A stretch of 64,000 bases of DNA from a virus: positions 9,131-73,130 of the IMG/VR virus record IMGVR_UViG_3300005077_000572. The stretch is one strand, 5' to 3'. Below, in pieces: positions 8,597-60,133 of the stretch. The translations under genes and the position numbers were made by a program. A model generated the notes under the pieces. That model worked only from the letters and a program-made list of their open reading frames with translations. It was not told the origin of the DNA and did not search any database. Each line of letters begins with the position of its first letter. Within the stretch, counting starts at the first letter, position 1.

Positions 8597-10002
8597 ATTT
8601 TGCTCGATAATCTGCTATAGCAGCCTTGACACAATCTTCGGCTAGGATACTACAGTGTATCTTAACCGGGGGCAGTGCTAGCTCTTCTGCAATTTGGCTA
8701 TTTTTTATTTCCTGTGCCTGATCCAGGGTGCGACCTTTGAGCCATTCTGTGACCAGGCTGGATGACGCGATTGCACTGCCGCAATTGTGAGACCCTACCC
8801 TATTAGTAAAATACACATGCGCACCATCCTCTAGTTTCAAATCATAAACTTTGGCTTGGCCAGCATTATTTTTTTCAACACCACGTAATTCATTACCATG
8901 TGTTATTGGTTTTATTGAAACTATTTTCATTCCGTTGTGAATAAAATTTTGTGCCTGTTCCACTGCTGAATCAATATCTTCTACAGCCAGACACAATGTA
9001 TCGTAGCCTGCAGTTTTTAACTGCGCAGTTCTACGGCTTACATAGTCTGAAGTGTCAGAACGATCTTCCATGAGTTTTGGCATGTTTTTTGTATATACTT
9101 CAATACATTTTTTCTTGCCTGGTACTATAAAATCTGGACTGGCAGGTCCAGTGCTGGTTTGAATCCAAATTTTCCCAGCCGAATATTTAACAGCCAAATC
9201 ATGTGCAGAAAACAAATCAATAAATTTTTGTTCCAGCGCAGTCACAGCAGATCTATCTATCTTTGACATTCCACTTTTCCATTTTTCCACGTAATCCGGA
9301 TTCTGCCAATTTTTAAATGACGCCATAGATTGACGTTTACTCCTAAGTTCTGGATCTTTTGGGATATATCCAGCCTGGTTCTGCGGTAACATCGAATGAT
9401 CAAATGTGCTGTTAAACTTACGCATACGTTGTGAATTTAGTTCCTTGATATAGTCGCGATGTCGAACGTTAGTGAGTTTGCGTAATTCATATTCTGTAAT
9501 TTCGTACAACTCCTGGTCGGCTACTAGGTCTTGAGCCAGTACCGGGTTATTATCGTGATTCCAAAATACATGTTCTTTAGTGCATATAAGTTTGAAGGTG
9601 CCAGGAGTCATACCAGTACGATGGGATTCACGCTGGAATTCAACGATTAACAAATCATCAATATCAACATAACGTGTGACAATTTCTTTAATCTTATTTG
9701 GTACTATATCAATTCCATTCCACGCCAATACTTCGTCGCCCGCCGATAAATCTTTTATTTTAACAGAGTGTGTTGGGGTATTGACATAAGTGTTCCCTAC
9801 AAAACACCCATAGGTTTTGAAGCGAGCATCTTCGATGATACCCTGTTCATTTACTTTGATCTGTAGTTTCATTACATCGCCGGTTCTAACCGCACGCTGG
9901 AGCACCGACCATGCCGGTGCCAACGTGCGCTTCCTCCTTTGAAAAAGATCCTACATTTCTAGGATGTTCATAATGATCGATTACGGCTGCTGAATATGCC
10001 AT
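8577..10002 (-). CDS. iscU: Fe-S scaffold IscU, interrupted by a 10-nt coding gap and an intein
   Basis: True start is ATG 10002 after GGAG: MAYSAAVIDHYEHPRNVGSFSKEEAHVGTGMVGAPACG, then TAG. It resumes in another frame as DVMKLQIKV...FKTYG, intein, then CGSAIASSS...LPPVKIHC. Removing both interruptions gives 130 aa with C37, D39, C63, H105, C106 in E. coli register. The ORF-track N-terminus (MAPAWSVLQ) is out of frame and spurious. Confidence 0.93.
8784..9806 (-). mobile_element. Intein (341 aa) with PD-(D/E)xK / Vsr-DUF559-like endonuclease domain
   Basis: Block A CFVGNTYV..; block B CTKEHVF (TxxH); block F KVYDLKLE; C-terminal HN followed by Cys+1. Internal TALEQKF...PDFIVPGKKKCIEV...AGYDTLCL. 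Confidence 0.92.
9879..9892 (-). other. 10-nt coding gap / hairpin in iscU (candidate translational bypass site)
   Basis: mRNA reads UGC GGU UAG AAC C GGC GAU. CGGTT-AG-AACCG at 9881-9892 is a perfect inverted repeat enclosing the stop. Confidence 0.6.
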
Positions 10003-46752: not shown

Positions 46753-49164
46753 TTAACTTAATGCACCGGTATTAACGATGCGGATCGGAATGTATATAAA
46801 TTCTGCTGCTTTTGTTGGTTCAACGGCAACATCAACATACAATTCATTGCGATCAATACGTGCAGGTGTATTATTGCTTTCATCACAGACAACAGCAAAG
46901 TCGTTTAATCCACGCTTGGCTAGGATATCTGCTAAGAAGCCTTCAAATACCAATTTAATTCTGGCACGTGTTGCAGCGTCATTGGGTTCAAATAAGAACG
47001 GACGGCTGATTTCATCAAATCGCTCACGCAAGTAAGCAACTAGACGTGCAACGTTGACACGATCAAGAGCACTTGTTGTGGCATGCAACGTTTTCTGACC
47101 CCAGACAACTACACCTTCAGCTGGGAAAGTGGCAATTGGGTTGAGTTTGTTGCTATACATGGCATCACGTTGGCCTTGATTTAGTGCAACTGCCTTGAAT
47201 TCGCCTTCGCTGGTGATGTAACCAACAGCGCTGGCATTTTGCACTACACCGCGTGTAGTACCGGCTGGAGCGAACCAGGGGTAAGCGATGTTATCATTAT
47301 ATGCATACTGATATAATGCCATGTGACTGGCCGGAACCGTAACAGTGACACCAGCTGGTGTAGTAGCACGGCCTGCAGGATAGTATACTGCACTGTATGT
47401 GTTTTTAGTAATCAAACCATCTTCGCCATTTTCTGATGCAGTGTTGCCCTGGACCCAGGCCACGGCCTCAGTGGGTGTCTTACGCATAGGTGCATCAATG
47501 ATGATGAAACCAGTTTCACCACGATCGCTGTTTAGCGTCACTAACTCATCAGTTAATTCTGGGAAGTTAGGAGCAGTCAACAATGTAAAGTTGCGCATTG
47601 GATCACGCAGGTCTTCATTGCCGGCAACTGCTGCTTGCATGGCGACTGTAATTACTTTGCGCTGTGCTAGACGACCGAATGCACCACTGCCGTCGGCGTG
47701 ATTGCTGGCAGCATTTCTCCAGGCACCGGCTGTGGCATTGTATGCACGAACGGTGTTGGCACTCTGAGTCATGTTAACAGCCAATATACCCGAGGGGTAC
47801 AGCTGATAATCAGGAGCGTCTGCAATTAGTGTTAATGTACCAAATGGCACATCTGTGCGGGTTTCATCAGAGAAATCAGCAAATAATACGCCATCTTGTG
47901 TTGTCTGATCAGTATTATCATGTAACATCCAGGCACTGCCGTTCCACTTGTTGAGTTTGGGATAATCACGCTCGTTAGCGCTGGTATCAACCCAGACATC
48001 GCCAACATTTAAGCTAGAACCATTTGAACGTGTAACTGGCTCTGTGGCGCTATATTGGATAGCTTCACTGGCAATTCTGTCCCAGCCAAAATGGCCACGA
48101 ACCAGAATGTCCAGATCAGTCTGCGCATCATTAAACCACAACACACCGTCAGCAGGAGCACCAGTAGGCTCAGCATCTTGTGCATAAATGGTGCTGGTAA
48201 TAGGCGTAGCAGTGCCGGCTGCAGTGTTGTCAACGGTAAATCCACCAACCGATGCAGCTCGCAATGAAAGCTGTAGATTTGTGTTAGTGAGTGGACTTAA
48301 TGCAGCGATGCTTGTACCGTCTTGTAGTACATAAACTGAGCCACCAGCAGTGGTGGTTACACCTTGTACTGTTTCTAGACCAAATACACCTGCAGAGTTA
48401 GTCTTATAAACTGCTAGACGAACACCATTACCAGCACGGGTAGTTTTAACCCAGACATCACCAGTGACTGGGGATGCTGGTGCTGCATAGTGCTGACTAT
48501 AAGTAACAGTAAATGTTGCGCTAGAATCTAAACGCACCCAGGAACCAGATACGCCGCGATAGTAAGTAACAGATACGTCTGTGGCACCATCGCTTAATAT
48601 TGTTACTAGATAATCACCGTTGGTAACGGTGGTTGTTGGTGTATATGTACCCGCAACTTCACCAGCAGTGGCATCAGTGTTAACTTCTACGATGACATCC
48701 TGTAAAATCCAGGTACTACCATTCCACTCATGAACGCCAAATGCGCTGCCATCAGTGTCAATCCAGTAAGTGTTACCTGCAACTGGACCTGTGGGAGCAT
48801 CTGCAGATGATACTAGTTCAGCTAGATCAATGTTGGCACGTACAACGTAGGCTTGTGAACCTTGACCTAGATAACTGTAGGCCGCTAGTAAACCGTATTC
48901 GCTTGTTTCGGCGCCTTCGCCGTCGGTAAACACTGGGTCACCGAAAAATTGTGTCAGTTCTCGCTGACTTGTTACTGGTACAACTGCACCAGCGACTGCA
49001 GATTTAGTATATTTCGCAATACCATCTGATTCTGTTCCTGTTGGGTCGATCTTGTCCTGACGTGTGGCAACAATCAATAATGGGATTGTTCCTGTGCCGG
49101 GTGACGCATATGCGCTCTCGTCAGTTACTGATACCGCAACACCTGGGGAAACTAAAGTAGCCAT
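46753..49164 (-). CDS. Contractile tail sheath (T4 gp18-like)
   Basis: LVSPGV.V...DES, YPWFAPAG..RG, NPI, WGQKT, LDRVNVARL, FLFEPND..TR, IEFIYIP-like end. Confidence 0.97.
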   Translation of the reverse strand: MATLVSPGVAVSVTDESAYASPGTGTIPLLIVATRQDKIDPTGTESDGIAKYTKSAVAGAVVPVTSQRELTQFFGDPVFTDGEGAETSEYGLLAAYSYLGQGSQAYVVRANIDLAELVSSADAPTGPVAGNTYWIDTDGSAFGVHEWNGSTWILQDVIVEVNTDATAGEVAGTYTPTTTVTNGDYLVTILSDGATDVSVTYYRGVSGSWVRLDSSATFTVTYSQHYAAPASPVTGDVWVKTTRAGNGVRLAVYKTNSAGVFGLETVQGVTTTAGGSVYVLQDGTSIAALSPLTNTNLQLSLRAASVGGFTVDNTAAGTATPITSTIYAQDAEPTGAPADGVLWFNDAQTDLDILVRGHFGWDRIASEAIQYSATEPVTRSNGSSLNVGDVWVDTSANERDYPKLNKWNGSAWMLHDNTDQTTQDGVLFADFSDETRTDVPFGTLTLIADAPDYQLYPSGILAVNMTQSANTVRAYNATAGAWRNAASNHADGSGAFGRLAQRKVITVAMQAAVAGNEDLRDPMRNFTLLTAPNFPELTDELVTLNSDRGETGFIIIDAPMRKTPTEAVAWVQGNTASENGEDGLITKNTYSAVYYPAGRATTPAGVTVTVPASHMALYQYAYNDNIAYPWFAPAGTTRGVVQNASAVGYITSEGEFKAVALNQGQRDAMYSNKLNPIATFPAEGVVVWGQKTLHATTSALDRVNVARLVAYLRERFDEISRPFLFEPNDAATRARIKLVFEGFLADILAKRGLNDFAVVCDESNNTPARIDRNELYVDVAVEPTKAAEFIYIPIRIVNTGALS

Positions 49165-54128: not shown

Positions 54129-55200
54129 CTGACTGACGTTCCTGTTGGCGTTGCTGGAAACGTTCACGCTGCCAGACTTGACTGCGATAATTTTTTAGTA
54201 TGTAGTTCAGGTCGTTTCTGTAAGTTTCAACGTCAGACAGCGCAGTCTGACAGCCATCTTTAATATAGGTCTGTAGACGAGAGTTGGTGTTGGTGGCCAC
54301 TCCACCAGTTTGTAGATACACCTGTTTGGTTAGGTAATAGTTGTAGTCGTCCAGGTAACTTCGTAGAATTCGTTGTTTGACGCAGTCATCGTAAAGATCA
54401 GGGATCAATTCCATCTGAATAGTATTGGTATATGAACTGACCCAGGCCTGATAGGGATCTACGGCATCATCAAATTCACCAAATTCATACTCTTCCAGAA
54501 CCTGTATGTCTAGTCGTGTGCGTCGTTGCAAATATCGTTTTAGATAGTTGCGATGAATATACACAGCATTGCCGTCTGCGTAGGTGATACCGTTGCTGCG
54601 ATGATTAGTCTTACAAAAAACCAGAGCATCGTCAATGTCAATGTCAGGGTGTTCAAATTTAGCGATGTCAATCTGTACATTGATGTCAAAAACATAGATG
54701 TGCTCAGTCAGTAAGTCGGGATTTAGTTGATCTATGGCATCACGCAGGCTGTCAGCATTGGTAACTAGTCGAGCATTCCCAAATTTAAGCTGGTGTGCAT
54801 TAAATTTTTTACGAGCACGTTCGGGATTAGTGTCCGCAGAGAAAAATATCATAGAGAAATTTTCCAGCGTATAGCATGCCGGCAACGGTTGTTGTATCTC
54901 CTGTTTGCGCATTCTAGGATCTGTGCTGACTAATTTAAGGACATTCCAGTTCATGGGCTGGCGTGTAGAGCTATTACACATCGGAAAACAGTGCACACAA
55001 TCACGTTGATTCTGATTAGGCCTCCAGCTCCAGTCAAAATCTTCACGTATTTCCATGCGATGATTCTGCAACCAGACATAGGGGTATCGATCTTGAAACT
55101 GGTCTGCAACCGAGTAGTCTAAAAGATCATAGACTTTGATTATTGGTAAATTGTTCAGGCGGCGTAGTGTAGCGCCGAAGGCAAGTTCTGTTTTAAACAT
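54103..55200 (-). CDS. Glycosyltransferase-like (degenerate GT-A) multidomain protein
   Basis: YVW....E..EDFDWSWRP repeat-like N-terminus; central MIFFS...A...F....KF.NARLV..., HIYVFD domain; adjacent to a GT2 gene. Confidence 0.45.
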   Translation of the reverse strand: MFKTELAFGATLRRLNNLPIIKVYDLLDYSVADQFQDRYPYVWLQNHRMEIREDFDWSWRPNQNQRDCVHCFPMCNSSTRQPMNWNVLKLVSTDPRMRKQEIQQPLPACYTLENFSMIFFSADTNPERARKKFNAHQLKFGNARLVTNADSLRDAIDQLNPDLLTEHIYVFDINVQIDIAKFEHPDIDIDDALVFCKTNHRSNGITYADGNAVYIHRNYLKRYLQRRTRLDIQVLEEYEFGEFDDAVDPYQAWVSSYTNTIQMELIPDLYDDCVKQRILRSYLDDYNYYLTKQVYLQTGGVATNTNSRLQTYIKDGCQTALSDVETYRNDLNYILKNYRSQVWQRERFQQRQQERQSVKTYPASF

Positions 55201-55789
55201 TGGATAATCTTAAATCAACAACACCGGTGTGGCGACATTCCTGGCTGGCATCAACATCCACATAAACTGTTATACCGTACTCGGCCAGTGTTTTACAAAA
55301 TCCCAGATCCTCGCCCTGATAACTACCGGTCTTGTAATCATAACTAAACGCGAACCAGGGCGCTGGAATGGTTTTAAAAACACTGACATCAGTTAACATA
55401 CAACCCATGCCCACGGCATACACTGGATGTAGTCCAGTACTACTGGCTAGGCGTTGTGACAGATCAAATTGATCAGTAAAGGCAGTACTCTGGTAGGGCT
55501 GTGTTCGTGTACTGTAAGCACAGGCAACTACCGGTGACTGATGTCGCTGCAGTAGTTGATATATTGTTGCTGGAAATACCATGTCACTGTCTAGCCAGAG
55601 AATTTCACTACAGTTGGCTGCTAGCGCACTGTTTACTAGACGCTGACGTTGATCTGGTAGTATACTGCCACTCTCAAAAAACAACATAAATGGCTGTCGT
55701 TCTGTCGATAGTCTGGCAGTTAACTGTGCCAGACTATATGCAAACCCAGTGGTGACATCGTTCCTGACTGGTACGCAGATTGCCAACAT
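55193..55789 (-). CDS. GT2-like glycosyltransferase
   Basis: ICVPVR, LWLDSDM (DxD), VGMGCML, PWF, GED.GFC. Confidence 0.8.
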   Translation of the reverse strand: MLAICVPVRNDVTTGFAYSLAQLTARLSTERQPFMLFFESGSILPDQRQRLVNSALAANCSEILWLDSDMVFPATIYQLLQRHQSPVVACAYSTRTQPYQSTAFTDQFDLSQRLASSTGLHPVYAVGMGCMLTDVSVFKTIPAPWFAFSYDYKTGSYQGEDLGFCKTLAEYGITVYVDVDASQECRHTGVVDLRLSNV

Positions 55790-56271: not shown

Positions 56272-56433
56272 TTAATGTCCGCCAAAACTGGCGCTTAGAT
56301 AAACTGTATTACCGGCAGTGATACCTACATAAGTACCCAGCTGACTGAGTGTACGCTGTGATCCACTGGTGAAGCCATAGTAGACCTGAATCTGGTTCAT
56401 GCTAATTTGACTGCCAGTTGATGGTAACGCCAT
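56272..56433 (-). CDS. Small Gly-rich tail-fibre-associated peptide (53 aa; not in ORF track)
   Basis: GGAG RBS; MALPSTGSQISMNQIQVYYGFTSGSQRTLSQLGTYVGITAGNTVYLSASFGGH, resembling the MALPSSG.IS adhesin N-terminus. Confidence 0.7.
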   Translation of the reverse strand: MALPSTGSQISMNQIQVYYGFTSGSQRTLSQLGTYVGITAGNTVYLSASFGGH

Positions 56434-56486
56434 GTAAATTTACTCCGGTATTTCTTTATTAATAGTAACGCACAAGAATGATTCTG

Positions 56487-58175
56487 TCAAGTATCATGTA
56501 CGTTGTATTTATGCCGTTTAACTACTACAATATAGACACCGTTCCACCATTGGTTAGGGTCTTCTTGTTCATTTAACAATATTTTTTCATAAAGTATATC
56601 AAAATTTGATTTAATAATTCCACTTCTAGCACCGTCCACTACACCCTGCCAGTTTGCATCATCAAATACTAAAATTGCAGTATCAGATATACATTCTTTG
56701 TAATAAAGTATTGCAGATTCTGTAGTTTGTTGTTCATGAGGCCCATCATAAAAAAATAAATCAATGTTTCGTATTTCAGTCACATCAACGTTAAACAAAT
56801 CACTATCAAACACCGATAATTCACGTCCATTTTTTACTGCACGTATGTTTTCAATAAAAGAATCTTTGGAGTTTTTTGGCAATAATATTTTATGATCAGC
56901 AGGTTGTATATTTTCAATCCATTGATCTACAAAGTATGCAGACTTTATACTATTTGATCTAAGTACTGCTGTGGCAGTAGCACCTAAAAATGATCCAATT
57001 TCCAGATAGCGAGTCGAAAGATTGGCAAGTGATGTCAACAAAGATTGTACTCGAGTAGAGGTCAACCCTGGAATCATTACTGGTGTATATTCTTGGTTAT
57101 CATGATATGCTATAGCATCAGATACTGCATTTACTAGTGGGTCAGAAGTAGTTCCACCTTTACTAGCATAAACCTTATCACAAAAGTTGCAATCCCAGCA
57201 ATCAAATTTACAGTTTTTTATGATACTACGCCAGGCATTTATTGGGCGTTCTTCAAGATTATTGTCAGAAATGTATTCATTGAAATTTGGAAATAATATT
57301 TCATGACCTTTTACAAATTTTTCAATAATAGACATTGATTCAAATAAACGATTAATACTTTCTCGTCCGTGCAGTTTAAACGTATCAATGCCTAATTCTA
57401 GTAGTTCAACCCAATCAGATCTCCATGGAGGCAAATTGGCAGTTTTTAACATTATTGCCGAGTCATCAACGTCCCATTTCTGGCAGGAAATTCGAGCAAT
57501 GCTTGAATTAAAATATTGCGGGTCATGCATTGTGCGTGTGCAATTGTACTGATAATGTTCGGTCATGATCGGACAATTTCCCGCACACCCCTCATTTGCT
57601 AGCAAACTTATCTTGAGATCAGGAAAAAGTTTCTTAACTCGTATAATTTTTTCCAGTTCGTCGCGATCCCTCATCAAATCACGATCTAAATTAATATAAT
57701 GAAATCCAGCCTTCGCCTCGGAATAAACTTGATTAGCTTTATATGTATCACGCAATATTGTATTCTTTATTAAAAGTTCAGGGAATTCTGATTGTATCTT
57801 ACCGGTCAATAACCACTGCGTATGCGGGATAGTTGCACTCCGCACGCCAGCGTGATACAATGGTTTGAAATTTTTAATAAATGTATCTAGATTTTTCTGA
57901 TCAGATCTAACATATATATTATTAAATGTTGCTGAAATTTCAACACCAGTTTGTGATTTAATAAACAAAGCAGAGTCAATTACTGACTGGTGATATTCTT
58001 CAACAACAAAAACATCCCCCATTGCATCCTGCGTAAAGGGTGCAATGCGAGACGTGAAATATATGTCGTAAATATAGTCTTTGTACCGCTGTACAAAATT
58101 TACAAAATACTCAAATTGTTTGTGATTTAATTTTGGGTTCAGCGGTAAGCTGAATATTTTCTGATTTATTGGCAT
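56487..58175 (-). CDS. Peptidase U32-like (Fe-S) domain fused to a class I SAM methyltransferase
   Basis: LDRDLMRD, LLANEGCAGNCP...H, FKLHGRE, CKFDCWDCNFC; then YLEIGSFLG, FFYDGPH, LVFDD.NW (Methyltransf_24-like). Confidence 0.75.
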   Translation of the reverse strand: MPINQKIFSLPLNPKLNHKQFEYFVNFVQRYKDYIYDIYFTSRIAPFTQDAMGDVFVVEEYHQSVIDSALFIKSQTGVEISATFNNIYVRSDQKNLDTFIKNFKPLYHAGVRSATIPHTQWLLTGKIQSEFPELLIKNTILRDTYKANQVYSEAKAGFHYINLDRDLMRDRDELEKIIRVKKLFPDLKISLLANEGCAGNCPIMTEHYQYNCTRTMHDPQYFNSSIARISCQKWDVDDSAIMLKTANLPPWRSDWVELLELGIDTFKLHGRESINRLFESMSIIEKFVKGHEILFPNFNEYISDNNLEERPINAWRSIIKNCKFDCWDCNFCDKVYASKGGTTSDPLVNAVSDAIAYHDNQEYTPVMIPGLTSTRVQSLLTSLANLSTRYLEIGSFLGATATAVLRSNSIKSAYFVDQWIENIQPADHKILLPKNSKDSFIENIRAVKNGRELSVFDSDLFNVDVTEIRNIDLFFYDGPHEQQTTESAILYYKECISDTAILVFDDANWQGVVDGARSGIIKSNFDILYEKILLNEQEDPNQWWNGVYIVVVKRHKYNVHDT

Positions 58176-58941
58176 GCGAATCTAGTAGATCTGGAATAGA
58201 CATATTTTTAGATTCAAGATATTGATTTACTTGATCTTGTGTGTTCAAGCTGATTTTATGTAGACCAGCCTGAATTAGGCCTGAATATTCAACGGCAACA
58301 GTTAACGCTTGTAGCTGATCTTCTTGCGCCATCATTGCGATGCTATCCATGTTTCCAGAACCAACCCGGCCGTAAGATATAATATCCAGAGCTGCTTGCT
58401 TGCCCATTCGGGCGATCCAATACTGGCGTTCTTCTTCTTCGTTATTCTGGAGGTAGTAGTCAAGATCACGATCTTTAGTTATATACTGCTTGATTACGTC
58501 CAGAAATGCCTGCATTTCATATTCACTCTGCCTGAGTTTACGCTTCCAGATAGTGATATCGTAATCATTTTTATCAATATCAATCTGAATTAATTCTCGA
58601 TCCAGTGGGTCAGTTGTGTGCTCTTGTTGTTGCAACCATTTTAACCTCATAATTTCAGCACGTCTTAAACTGGCCTTAATTTCTTGATAGGCATGATACC
58701 TAACCTCTAATTCCATTAGACTTTGACGTACCTGTTTATAAGGCGTAATCTGACTGTTTGCAACAAAATGCTTACACTGGTATTGGGTCATTCCAGAATC
58801 AGCAATTACGGCATTAGTTATGATGTGCCGATCTAATTCGGAAAGTTTATAACGATCGACAAAATCAGGATCTAATTTAATTTCTCTGACTTCGCTTGAT
58901 ACTATGTTATGTTCGTTGATTATATTAGAAGTAATATCCAT
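58111..58941 (-). CDS. Coiled-coil hypothetical protein
   Basis: GMTQYQC..FV..SQITPYKQVRQ...ELE; YWIARMGKQAA.D....G..G.GN. Confidence 0.7.
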   Translation of the reverse strand: MDITSNIINEHNIVSSEVREIKLDPDFVDRYKLSELDRHIITNAVIADSGMTQYQCKHFVANSQITPYKQVRQSLMELEVRYHAYQEIKASLRRAEIMRLKWLQQQEHTTDPLDRELIQIDIDKNDYDITIWKRKLRQSEYEMQAFLDVIKQYITKDRDLDYYLQNNEEEERQYWIARMGKQAALDIISYGRVGSGNMDSIAMMAQEDQLQALTVAVEYSGLIQAGLHKISLNTQDQVNQYLESKNMSIPDLLDSHANKSENIQLTAEPKIKSQTI

Positions 58942-60133
58942 TACCTTTAACTCTCCATTCTTCTTTTCGATTATAGTCAGTATCGCTTATAGTTCTACCC
59001 AAGGCAGCAGCCTGTTTAAGTGGCATACCGATTCCCAAGTAGTCTTCATAAAGAATATTTAAATCCCAGACGCTGGAACAAGATTCAAATTTCTTTAAAA
59101 TAATCTGCATTTCAACCAATAAGCGAGACAGTTTGTCATTAAACTCTTCAGACTTTTGTAATATTTTATTGGATAATGTAGTTTTGTCAATATTTCGTTG
59201 TACGGATATATAATCTAAAAATGGGGTCACGTGCCCAGGAACTTCACCATAGGTTAGCCACTCCTGTGCTTCATGTCGCTGTATCTGCCAACTTTCAGTT
59301 TCCAGCTGACTAGCACTGCGCATTGTTAGGTAACGGCGCTCAAATTCAGTTTCAATTATTTCACGAGCAAAGATTTTCATTACTGTTAAAATATAACCAG
59401 CGATTTCTGGTGTAATTTCAGTGGGTATTTTCTCTCCATACCAGCTGGTACGTGCTTCCCAGACTTTAGCCACCGGGCGTATTTCTCCAAAAAATGTTGT
59501 GCCATAAAATGCCGTGTCTTCGTCGATTTCAATAATTTCTTCAGCAACCCAAACTGCCTTCATGGTCTGATAAAGACCTTCACTCATCTTCACACATGTG
59601 TAATTCATCAAACTATACATTTCCTGACATGTCATGTTATAATCTCCGCCGGGATTACCATGCAATAACCCTTCAACTGATCGGTGTTTGACAATAATAT
59701 AACGATATGGTGGTTGCTGTAGTTCTAACCCAGCATCGTCCGAAAACACCGTTTCAGCATATAAATTTAATAGTTCGTTGGTATAGGTCATCACTGAAGT
59801 TAATATAGTGACACTTCTACCTTCGGAATCGATTGACTCGTCTGCAGTTGTAACTATATCAATATCTGGATTAGTGACTGCTGGATTTGCTTGAATGCGC
59901 ACATTTGAGTCTGTTGTTTTAACTGTAGTTGTTACTGTTACTAATCCCGGTATTGATTTTTCATAATCAGTGAGTGTAACATCTTCTTGAGTGGAAATTT
60001 CAATGTCTGAATCCACTGAAGAGATATCTATAACAAGTATAGCATTATATATTACTGATGGTTGAATAGTATTGATATCTGAATCAGTCAATATTATAGT
60101 TGTTTTATTTCTATAGTTAACAAGTTTGCTCAT
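58925..60133 (-). CDS. Putative tail-fibre assembly-like protein
   Basis: C-terminal E.ESW..Q..EA..W...TPFLD.I...R....L..KIL.K; acidic Thr-rich N-terminal extension. Confidence 0.55.
   Translation of the reverse strand: MSKLVNYRNKTTIILTDSDINTIQPSVIYNAILVIDISSVDSDIEISTQEDVTLTDYEKSIPGLVTVTTTVKTTDSNVRIQANPAVTNPDIDIVTTADESIDSEGRSVTILTSVMTYTNELLNLYAETVFSDDAGLELQQPPYRYIIVKHRSVEGLLHGNPGGDYNMTCQEMYSLMNYTCVKMSEGLYQTMKAVWVAEEIIEIDEDTAFYGTTFFGEIRPVAKVWEARTSWYGEKIPTEITPEIAGYILTVMKIFAREIIETEFERRYLTMRSASQLETESWQIQRHEAQEWLTYGEVPGHVTPFLDYISVQRNIDKTTLSNKILQKSEEFNDKLSRLLVEMQIILKKFESCSSVWDLNILYEDYLGIGMPLKQAAALGRTISDTDYNRKEEWRVKGNGYYF

Follow-up and report, generated by a model that had tools for sequence, protein, structure and literature searches.

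The fusion gene and its reading frame

The window analyzed here is a stretch of 64,000 nucleotides of viral DNA (positions 9,131 to 73,130 of the record IMGVR_UViG_3300005077_000572). It carries a gene for a 562-residue protein in which a U32-like domain is fused to an O-methyltransferase domain, referred to below as U32-MT. The gene, its domains and the motifs within them are as follows.

56487–58175, minus strand: U32-like domain and O-methyltransferase fusion gene, 562 aa (open reading frame (ORF) list and translation)
57141–58175, minus strand: N-terminal U32-like (β/α)8 triosephosphate isomerase (TIM) barrel, residues 1–345 (AlphaFold2, PDB structure match, hhalign)
57483–57596, minus strand: Cys region after β7, N-E-G-C197-x3-C201...C231, residues 194–231 (conservation, hhalign)
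57360–57380, minus strand: β8 motif FKLHGRE, residues 266–272, counterpart of the U32 motif FKIEGR
57180–57212, minus strand: additional Cys box C322-x3-C326-x2-C329-x2-C332, invariant in the family and without a counterpart in canonical U32 proteins
56508–57110, minus strand: class I cation-dependent O-methyltransferase domain (COMT/CCoAOMT/TrmR-type), residues 356–556
56973–57008, minus strand: YLEIGSFLGATA, assigned as S-adenosylmethionine (SAM)-binding motif I by the established pattern of class I methyltransferases; E392, G394 and G398 are invariant
56736–56756, minus strand: FFYDGPH; D477 is invariant and aligns to the first of the metal-binding Asp residues of TrmR, in its FIDA motif
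56649–56669, minus strand: VFDDANW; D505, D506 and N508 are invariant and aligned with the TrmR metal motif ITDN

The sequence motifs quoted in an initial annotation of this DNA were all confirmed at their coordinates: NEGCAGNCP at residues 194–202, C212 (x9), C231 (x18), FKLHGRE at 266–272 and CKFDCWDCNFC at 322–332. In PHROGs, the protein matched phrog_1458 over its whole length (E = 6.9e-166, residues 52–554) and phrog_36869 over the N-terminal domain only; neither family has an annotated function. The protein is acidic, with an isoelectric point (pI) of 5.5.

The public gene call for the record yields a protein of 511 aa that starts at M52. This call cuts off 58022–58175 and loses β1-α1-β2 of the barrel. 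Residues 8–16 form barrel strand β1 and, because homologs conserve them, the long start at M1 is correct. The long start overlaps the upstream phrog_1409 gene by 65 nt, and this overlap suggests translational coupling. The P-SSM4 annotation PSSM4_035 (521 aa) likewise starts too late, truncating β1-α1-β2.

The gene had been described as more AT-rich than the core genes, and its GC content is indeed 34.5% as compared with a window mean of 42.6%. This value falls in the lowest 0.2% of same-size windows (standard deviation, 2.4%) and marks the most AT-rich 1.7 kb of the window. The two genes upstream, phrog_1409 and phrog_1604, have GC contents of ~37%. Together with U32-MT, they are spanned by a low-GC block at 56272–60133 (~34–37%), the flanks of which have GC contents of 43–46%. 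The block fits joint acquisition of these genes, described below as a module, from a phage lineage richer in AT. In the region from 53.5 to 64 kb, neither a T4-type late promoter (TATAAATA) nor sigma-70 promoter or terminator signals above chance were found.

Fold, cysteine layout and methyltransferase class

The N-terminal domain was modelled with AlphaFold2 using a family alignment of 59 diverse members (22–58% identity) as input. The model is an eight-stranded β/α barrel with a predicted local distance difference test score of 94 and a predicted template-modeling (TM) score of 0.92. In a structure search of 48,161 PDB chains, the U32 protein Mk0906 (5d88) ranked first, with a Z-score of 17.0 and a root-mean-square deviation (rmsd) of 3.1 Å over 226 of 247 residues. 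The second-ranked match, at Z = 12.9, belongs to generic TIM barrels, approximately four Z units below 5d88. The same structure again ranked first when the full-length protein was compared, and Foldseek concurred on U32, with the best TM-score and the lowest rmsd. A U32 TIM barrel is what the initial annotation had set in advance as the test of its assignment, and 5d88 is the top match of the model. Similarly, the model matched an ESM Atlas cluster in which 99% of members carry PF01136 (TM-score of 0.73 over 310 residues), as well as viral clusters with PF01136 on 20% of members (TM-score of 0.9; language-model feature search score of 0.92).

We also compared the 59-sequence family with a canonical U32 profile of 14 sequences, comprising the four Escherichia coli paralogs and ten divergent U32 ORFs. 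The hhalign probability was 96.5% (E = 9.5e-10) over 143 columns corresponding to α1-α6. The reversed-sequence control gave 0.2%, a profile of only the four E. coli paralogs gave 66%, and alignment to UbiU alone was insignificant. Searches of PDB sequences with the whole protein (phmmer) and with the N-domain profile (hmmsearch) returned nothing, NCBIfam returned nothing relevant for the 562-aa protein, and Pfam had no match to the N-terminal domain. Based on the fold match of the model to 5d88 and the hhalign result, we assign the N-terminal domain as a true, if distant, homolog of U32 proteins that the Pfam model does not reach.

Mk0906, a minimal U32 protein from Methanopyrus kandleri, is the best structural match and covers β1-α8. 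Unlike Mk0906, with which it shares ~10% sequence identity, the phage domain has a 70-residue excursion between β7 and β8 and a 60-residue C-terminal extension that bears four more Cys.

The conserved residues of the family are concentrated in a few motifs. Invariant in the 59 members are N85, G110, K267, G270, R271, C322, C326, C329 and C332, while C197, C201, C231, E195, E206 and H207 are at least 90% conserved. C212 is not conserved and is Asn in most family sequences. Thus, of the Cys cluster as first written, C197, C201 and C231 stand, C212 does not, and the pattern differs from that of canonical U32 proteins. The conserved pattern comprises seven Cys: C197-x3-C201-x29-C231 plus C322-x3-C326-x2-C329-x2-C332. 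The FKLHGR motif aligned to the U32 motif KIEGR with high posterior values, the Glu being replaced by His.

The C-terminal domain is a cation-dependent SAM O-methyltransferase of the COMT/CCoAOMT/TrmR type. The Methyltransf_24-like domain proposed initially was recovered as a Pfam match (PF13578, residues 391–506) that slightly exceeded its cut-off (27.6 versus 26.3 bits; E = 5.6e-6), and the same match is precomputed on nearly all homologs. When the C-domain profile was searched against PDB sequences, the sole significant match was TrmR/YrrM of Bacillus subtilis (5zw3/5zw4), with E = 7.2e-5 over 86 columns. The HMMER alignment to 5zw3 crosses the metal motifs, pairing FIDA with FFYDG and ITDN with VFDDAN. 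The acidic residue after β2, D417, is also invariant.

Structural comparison gave the same class. Of the best 25 methyltransferase matches, almost every one is a cation-dependent O-methyltransferase, with Z-scores of 14.6–16.4 over ~170–180 residues. The nearest neighbours are TomG, Rv1220c, a bacterial COMT and MeT1, at Z = 16.0–16.4. TrmR ranks 19th (Z = 14.9), behind small-molecule O-methyltransferases, all of these lying within ~1.5 Z units. The initial claim of a SAM methyltransferase was therefore sound: the domain belongs to the structural class of TrmR, and among proteins of solved structure TrmR is also the closest to it by sequence. Like COMT, CCoAOMT, TomG, SafC and MeT1 (Methyltransf_3/24), to which it matches at Z = 14–16.4 over ~175 residues, the domain conserves motif I together with three metal ligands of the acidic or amide kind. 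Unlike these enzymes, the phage protein has DDxN in place of DN as its metal motif. The structural model hints that the N-terminal helices of free-standing COMT-type enzymes may be partly supplied here by the U32 domain, as the aligned range of the model starts at about residue 213–221 in several alignments.

A conserved gene module and its distribution

The U32-like gene belongs to a conserved, co-inherited module, as judged from a shared distribution and from neighbours that recur across phages and a bacterium. In the window, the neighbours of interest are as follows.

58111–58941, minus strand: phrog_1409 gene, 276 aa, helical (E = 1.4e-65); upstream partner
58925–60133, minus strand: phrog_1604 gene, 402 aa, helical (E = 1.1e-39); third module member
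55193–55789, minus strand: phrog_1574 protein, 198 aa, with a weak match to Anp1-type glycosyltransferases (E = 8.9e-5, below cut-off)

On the minus strand, the order is an S74 fibre C-terminus, three Gly-rich paralogs, phrog_1604, phrog_1409 and U32-MT. These are followed by a 53-aa ORF, a phrog_1409-like gene, the glycosyltransferase-like phrog_1574 gene, which lies 0.7 kb downstream of U32-MT in the same gene string, and a 365-aa gene. NUDIX and gp15 then occur on the other strand.

The U32-like protein and phrog_1409 were each detected in 126 of 50,697 phage records, with an identical taxon breakdown (Synechococcus, 77; Cyanophage, 38; Prochlorococcus, 8; Ralstonia, 3). phrog_1604 was detectable in 92 cyanophage records. 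phrog_1409 adjoins the U32-like gene in P-SSM4, in Ralstonia jumbo phage RP12, on a bacterial chromosome and on a 400 kb contig. Similarly, phrog_1604 homologs adjoin it in the locus of a relative that is 68% identical and in the bacterial locus.

Beyond these partners, the loci vary. The 400 kb contig, which encodes a 64%-identical homolog, has the same layout as the window plus a DUF401-like gene (faint match) directly after the fusion. The 68%-identical homolog has genes for phrog_1604, a 2-oxoglutarate (2OG)-Fe(II) oxygenase and phrog_7084 to one side of it and gp13/gp14 to the other. In RP12, the order is phrog_1409, U32-like and DUF401 (ORF138). On the 6.4 Mb bacterial chromosome, it is a 1511-aa Laminin_G_3/DUF2341 protein, phrog_1409, a phrog_1604-like gene, U32-like, DUF401 and patatin. 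The DUF401 proteins of RP12 and the bacterium are 36% identical (E = 7e-59). Thus, in three unrelated settings, the next gene downstream of the U32-like gene encodes a DUF401/CitMHS-like membrane protein. No DUF401 gene was found in the window's 75 kb record, which is a fragment.

A distant T4-like lineage carries, between the S74 fibre and gp13, three Gly_rich_2 genes, a strong Trp halogenase homolog (E = 1.7e-104), the U32-like gene, four tandem paralogs of ~193 aa and a ferritin. Its U32-like member is 432 aa long and has no recognized methyltransferase. Redox or tailoring enzymes are densely grouped in this block, next to fibre genes. The four paralogs that follow the 432-aa homolog were considered as a split methyltransferase and rejected; they weakly resemble 2OG-Fe(II) oxygenases. 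RP12 ORF140 was considered for the same role and is not a methyltransferase. A Rosetta-stone relationship was also discarded, as the N-terminal extensions of three homologs match neither phrog_1409, any PHROG, nor a methyltransferase domain. In a separate setting, the gene of a stand-alone 346-aa U32-like homolog (Logan SRR19514067) comes directly after a radical SAM gene of 333 aa, and the two overlap by 4 nt.

The partner proteins themselves gave few leads. Pfam was uninformative for the phrog_1604-type and phrog_1409-type proteins, and phrog_1409 returned only sub-threshold leads in the ESM Atlas (KfrC-like, 0.80). Complex prediction for the N-terminal domain with the phrog_1409 protein gave a score of 0.00 and a mark of 0.32, which speaks neither for nor against binding.

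In a set of 5.8 billion proteins, there are at least 2008 collinear homologs of the full fusion protein. The N-terminal domain alone accounts for 458 clusters at 50% identity, including many stand-alone forms of 330–440 aa. The initial annotation had proposed checking for split or fused arrangements, and both exist among the relatives. The window's record has a CheckV completeness of 18%, and close homologs of U32-MT occur on contigs of up to 400 kb. The tail sheath (46753–49164) is nearest to those of PA5oct-type Pseudomonas jumbo phages, at 42% identity. The window is probably part of an uncultured myovirus of ~400 kb and not of a classical cyanophage.

In GenBank and PHROGs, the protein is labelled hypothetical. 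Both halves have been glimpsed already by annotation pipelines: some relatives bear the automatic names 'Peptidase U32 (fragment)' and 'YrrM', and JGI pipelines name some homologs 'O-methyltransferase YrrM'. Sullivan et al. (2010) described T4-GC351-354 as a block of hypothetical proteins in which GC353 overlaps GC354. Our literature search found no publication linking U32 to cyanophages or describing a U32-O-methyltransferase fusion. Our analysis adds to this by demonstrating U32 homology, describing the altered seven-Cys layout, assigning the methyltransferase to the TrmR/COMT type and identifying the conserved module that includes phrog_1409, phrog_1604 and DUF401.

Proposed chemistry and candidate substrates

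U32 proteins are a young class of enzymes, O2-independent hydroxylases that take their oxygen from prephenate. The characterized members, UbiU/UbiV, TrhP and RlhA, carry a [4Fe-4S] cluster and hydroxylate aromatic or pyrimidine rings in a prephenate-dependent manner. To our knowledge, they have only three substrates: U34 of tRNA, C2501 of 23S rRNA and precursors of ubiquinone. In anaerobic ubiquinone synthesis, hydroxylation by UbiU/V alternates with SAM-dependent O-methylation. Methyltransferases of the COMT/TrmR class act on a hydroxyl held on a divalent cation beside a second oxygen, such as in catechol or the 5-OH/4-oxo pair of 5-hydroxyuridine (ho5U). The closest precedent for the pairing is the Bacillus trmR-trhP1-trhP2 operon, which converts U34 of tRNA to ho5U34 and then to 5-methoxyuridine (mo5U34; Sakai 2019), an analogy that the initial annotation had drawn correctly.

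The fusion of a U32 fold to a COMT/TrmR-type O-methyltransferase suggests hydroxylation followed by O-methylation. A two-domain enzyme that hydroxylates and then O-methylates its substrate is the best reading of U32-MT, and one that we favour by slightly more than we doubt it. On the model of TrhP1/TrhP2 and TrmR making mo5U34, the U32-like domain would install a hydroxyl on an sp2 ring carbon of the substrate, which the fused O-methyltransferase domain would turn into a methoxy group. The enzyme probably works in a module with the co-inherited phrog_1409 and phrog_1604 proteins. For U32-MT, we infer iron-sulfur (Fe-S) binding, prephenate use, hydroxylase activity and the order of the steps.

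The comparison with the known systems has two sides. Like TrhP1/TrhP2 (YrrO/YrrN) and TrmR (YrrM), the phage system pairs a U32-fold protein with a cation-dependent COMT-type O-methyltransferase. Unlike them, it holds both predicted activities in one acidic chain, is phage-encoded and has other gene partners. With UbiU/UbiV of E. coli, it shares the U32 TIM barrel, Cys after β7 and plasticity of the ligands. UbiU/UbiV need the accessory partner UbiT, whereas the phage gene has no SCP2/UbiT-like partner and is instead accompanied by phrog_1409, phrog_1604 and DUF401. Moreover, the phage methyltransferase is COMT-type and fused, in contrast to the UbiG-type enzyme of the ubiquinone pathway.

Several observations weigh against the hydroxylation and O-methylation proposal. 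First, PF01136 was silent: it did not match the 562-aa protein at E ≤ 0.1, any of the six translated frames of the entire 75 kb record at a threshold as loose as E ≤ 10, or the 59 diverse family members even at E ≤ 5. The same model detected all four E. coli U32 paralogs. The U32 label given initially is thus upheld by fold and profile-profile comparison, as a remote homolog, and not by standard sequence models. Second, the family does not keep the canonical four-Cys motif that follows β7, CX6CX15CX3/4C (Pelosi 2019): ligand 3 is absent and the spacing differs. Third, the essential Glu of TrhP (E162; E161 in RlhA), at the start of β7, aligns to Ser190, albeit in a low-confidence stretch. A conserved Glu195 lies two residues ahead of C197 and may or may not substitute for this Glu. 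Finally, many family members have no methyltransferase (RP12, the 432-aa forms and the bacterial copy), so O-methylation is not intrinsic to the job of the family.

The cysteine layout nevertheless retains features of canonical U32 proteins. In a low-stringency extension of the hhalign alignment, C197 and C201 correspond to canonical Cys 1 and Cys 2, and C231 (SCQKW) corresponds to Cys 4 (CRW), although confidence is low in this part of the alignment. Canonical Cys 1 and Cys 2, the pair with C197 and C201 as counterparts in the phage protein, are essential in TrhP and RlhA (Sakai 2019). The altered layout also has precedent because UbiU (C232) and UbiV (C39) each relocate one cluster ligand (Pelosi 2019). 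Unlike TrhP, the phage protein adds the CX3CX2CX2C box and has no Peptidase_U32_C domain. As judged from the sequence, two arrangements of the seven Cys are allowed: a cluster completed by a Cys of the box, with a second three-Cys site, or a site-differentiated three-Cys cluster with an all-Cys Fe-S or Zn site.

We considered three classes of substrate for this two-step chemistry. The first is nucleic acid, in which the target would be C5 of a pyrimidine in RNA or DNA. In one variant, U32-MT would be a TrhP-TrmR analogue that makes mo5U or 5-methoxycytidine in tRNA or rRNA of the host or the phage, tuning wobble decoding for an AT-rich phage. In the other, 5-hydroxy- or 5-methoxypyrimidines in phage DNA would serve as an anti-restriction mark. 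TrmR is the sole significant solved sequence relative of the C-terminal domain, the one characterized pairing of a U32 protein with a COMT-type methyltransferase is the mo5U operon, and TrhP and RlhA, the two RNA hydroxylases known so far, both belong to the U32 proteins. Additionally, cyanophage S-B43 redirects xo5U-pathway chemistry, namely CmoA and carboxy-SAM (Cx-SAM) chemistry, to DNA cytosine (PMC12783734). On the other side, TrmR is structurally no closer than small-molecule O-methyltransferases (Z = 14.9 versus 16.4). The RNA version of the proposal faces further difficulties: the protein has neither Peptidase_U32_C nor another RNA-binding module, its pI is acidic, the window contains no tRNA gene, and the gene is part of a string of late structural genes. 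Moreover, partners that are membrane proteins or helical are unexpected for a tRNA enzyme. The membrane partner, the acidity of the protein and the lack of Peptidase_U32_C and of a tRNA gene together disfavour a simple tRNA enzyme. Overall, we regard nucleic acid as a credible but improbable substrate.

The second class is a small aromatic metabolite or a membrane lipid, quinone-like as in the case of UbiU/V and UbiG, for which DUF401 would supply or export the compound. A DUF401-like gene lies downstream in RP12 and on the bacterial chromosome, and faintly so on the 400 kb phage contig. The closest structures to the C-terminal domain are natural-product and catechol O-methyltransferases. The neighbours in other lineages include Trp halogenase, 2OG-Fe(II) oxygenases, radical SAM and ferritin, and UbiU/V are themselves U32 hydroxylases of a lipid-anchored aromatic ring. 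Nevertheless, the 75 kb record, itself a fragment, has no DUF401 gene, DUF401 has no known function, and no recognizable biosynthetic pathway surrounds the gene in the window. We consider this class unlikely to about the same degree as nucleic acid.

The third class is a virion protein, on which the same chemistry, or part of it, would act; candidates are the Gly/aromatic-rich fibre proteins and the phrog_1409/1604 proteins. The gene always ends the tail-fibre module, as seen in the window, the 400 kb relative and the distant T4-like lineage, and the bacterial copy follows the Laminin_G_3/DUF2341 giant. A glycosyltransferase-like gene lies close downstream, and prolyl-hydroxylase-like 2OG oxygenases cluster with the gene. 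However, hydroxylation of a protein is not known for any U32 enzyme, and the activity of COMT-type methyltransferases on protein side chains is not established. Furthermore, T4-like genomes gather accessory genes between structural modules, which makes position alone a weak argument. The virion modification hinted at initially gains some support from the synteny with fibre genes and the bacterial giant, yet it is one of three substrate classes, and we consider it decidedly unlikely.

An equally poor prospect is that the N-terminal domain is not a hydroxylase, and that the C-terminal CX3CX2C(X2C) box binds a radical-SAM-type or purely structural (Zn/Fe-S) site on a TIM barrel, much as ThiC bears a cluster at its C-terminus, with radical or other chemistry coupled to methyl transfer. 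The invariant C322-x3-C326-x2-C329 has radical SAM spacing, one ESM Atlas cluster annotated Radical_SAM matches the model at a TM-score of 0.75, and the gene of one stand-alone homolog overlaps a radical SAM gene. However, no radical SAM enzyme occurs among the top 50 PDB matches, in which U32 alone reaches Z = 17, and hhalign backs U32 homology over α1-α6. The box lies after the barrel and not after β1 as in radical SAM enzymes, and Pfam Radical_SAM (PF04055) matched neither the protein nor its 59 relatives. The radical SAM proteins of the Atlas cluster are 622 aa long and their TM-score by target is 0.44, such that the aligned part may be another domain.

Returning to hydroxylation followed by O-methylation, a broader proposal can be framed. 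In this proposal, phrog_1604, phrog_1409 and the U32-like enzyme, with or without the O-methyltransferase and with or without DUF401, would form an unrecognized macromolecule-methoxylating system of marine cyanophages, which are abundant worldwide, jumbo phages and bacteria. The enzyme would be an O2-independent, prephenate-type Fe-S hydroxylase with a second metal site, and its product would be a 5-methoxypyrimidine in phage DNA or RNA, or hydroxylation or O-methylation of a fibre protein. Taken jointly, these elements make a tentative proposal that we hold well short of even confidence.

If true, this broader proposal would extend the chemistry of U32 proteins beyond tRNA, rRNA and ubiquinone. 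The family represents a U32 branch missed by standard models; the 126 sequenced phages that carry it are nearly all T4-like cyanophages of marine origin, and the fused O-methyltransferase suggests what becomes of the hydroxyl. For the cyanophage hypothetical block T4-GC351-354, unannotated since 2010, it offers a testable chemistry. A predicted O2-independent hydroxylase would be kept by viruses of oxygen-producing hosts. Finally, the enzyme is part of a conserved four-gene module, and its substrate, be it nucleic acid, a metabolite or a virion protein, could represent a new phage modification.

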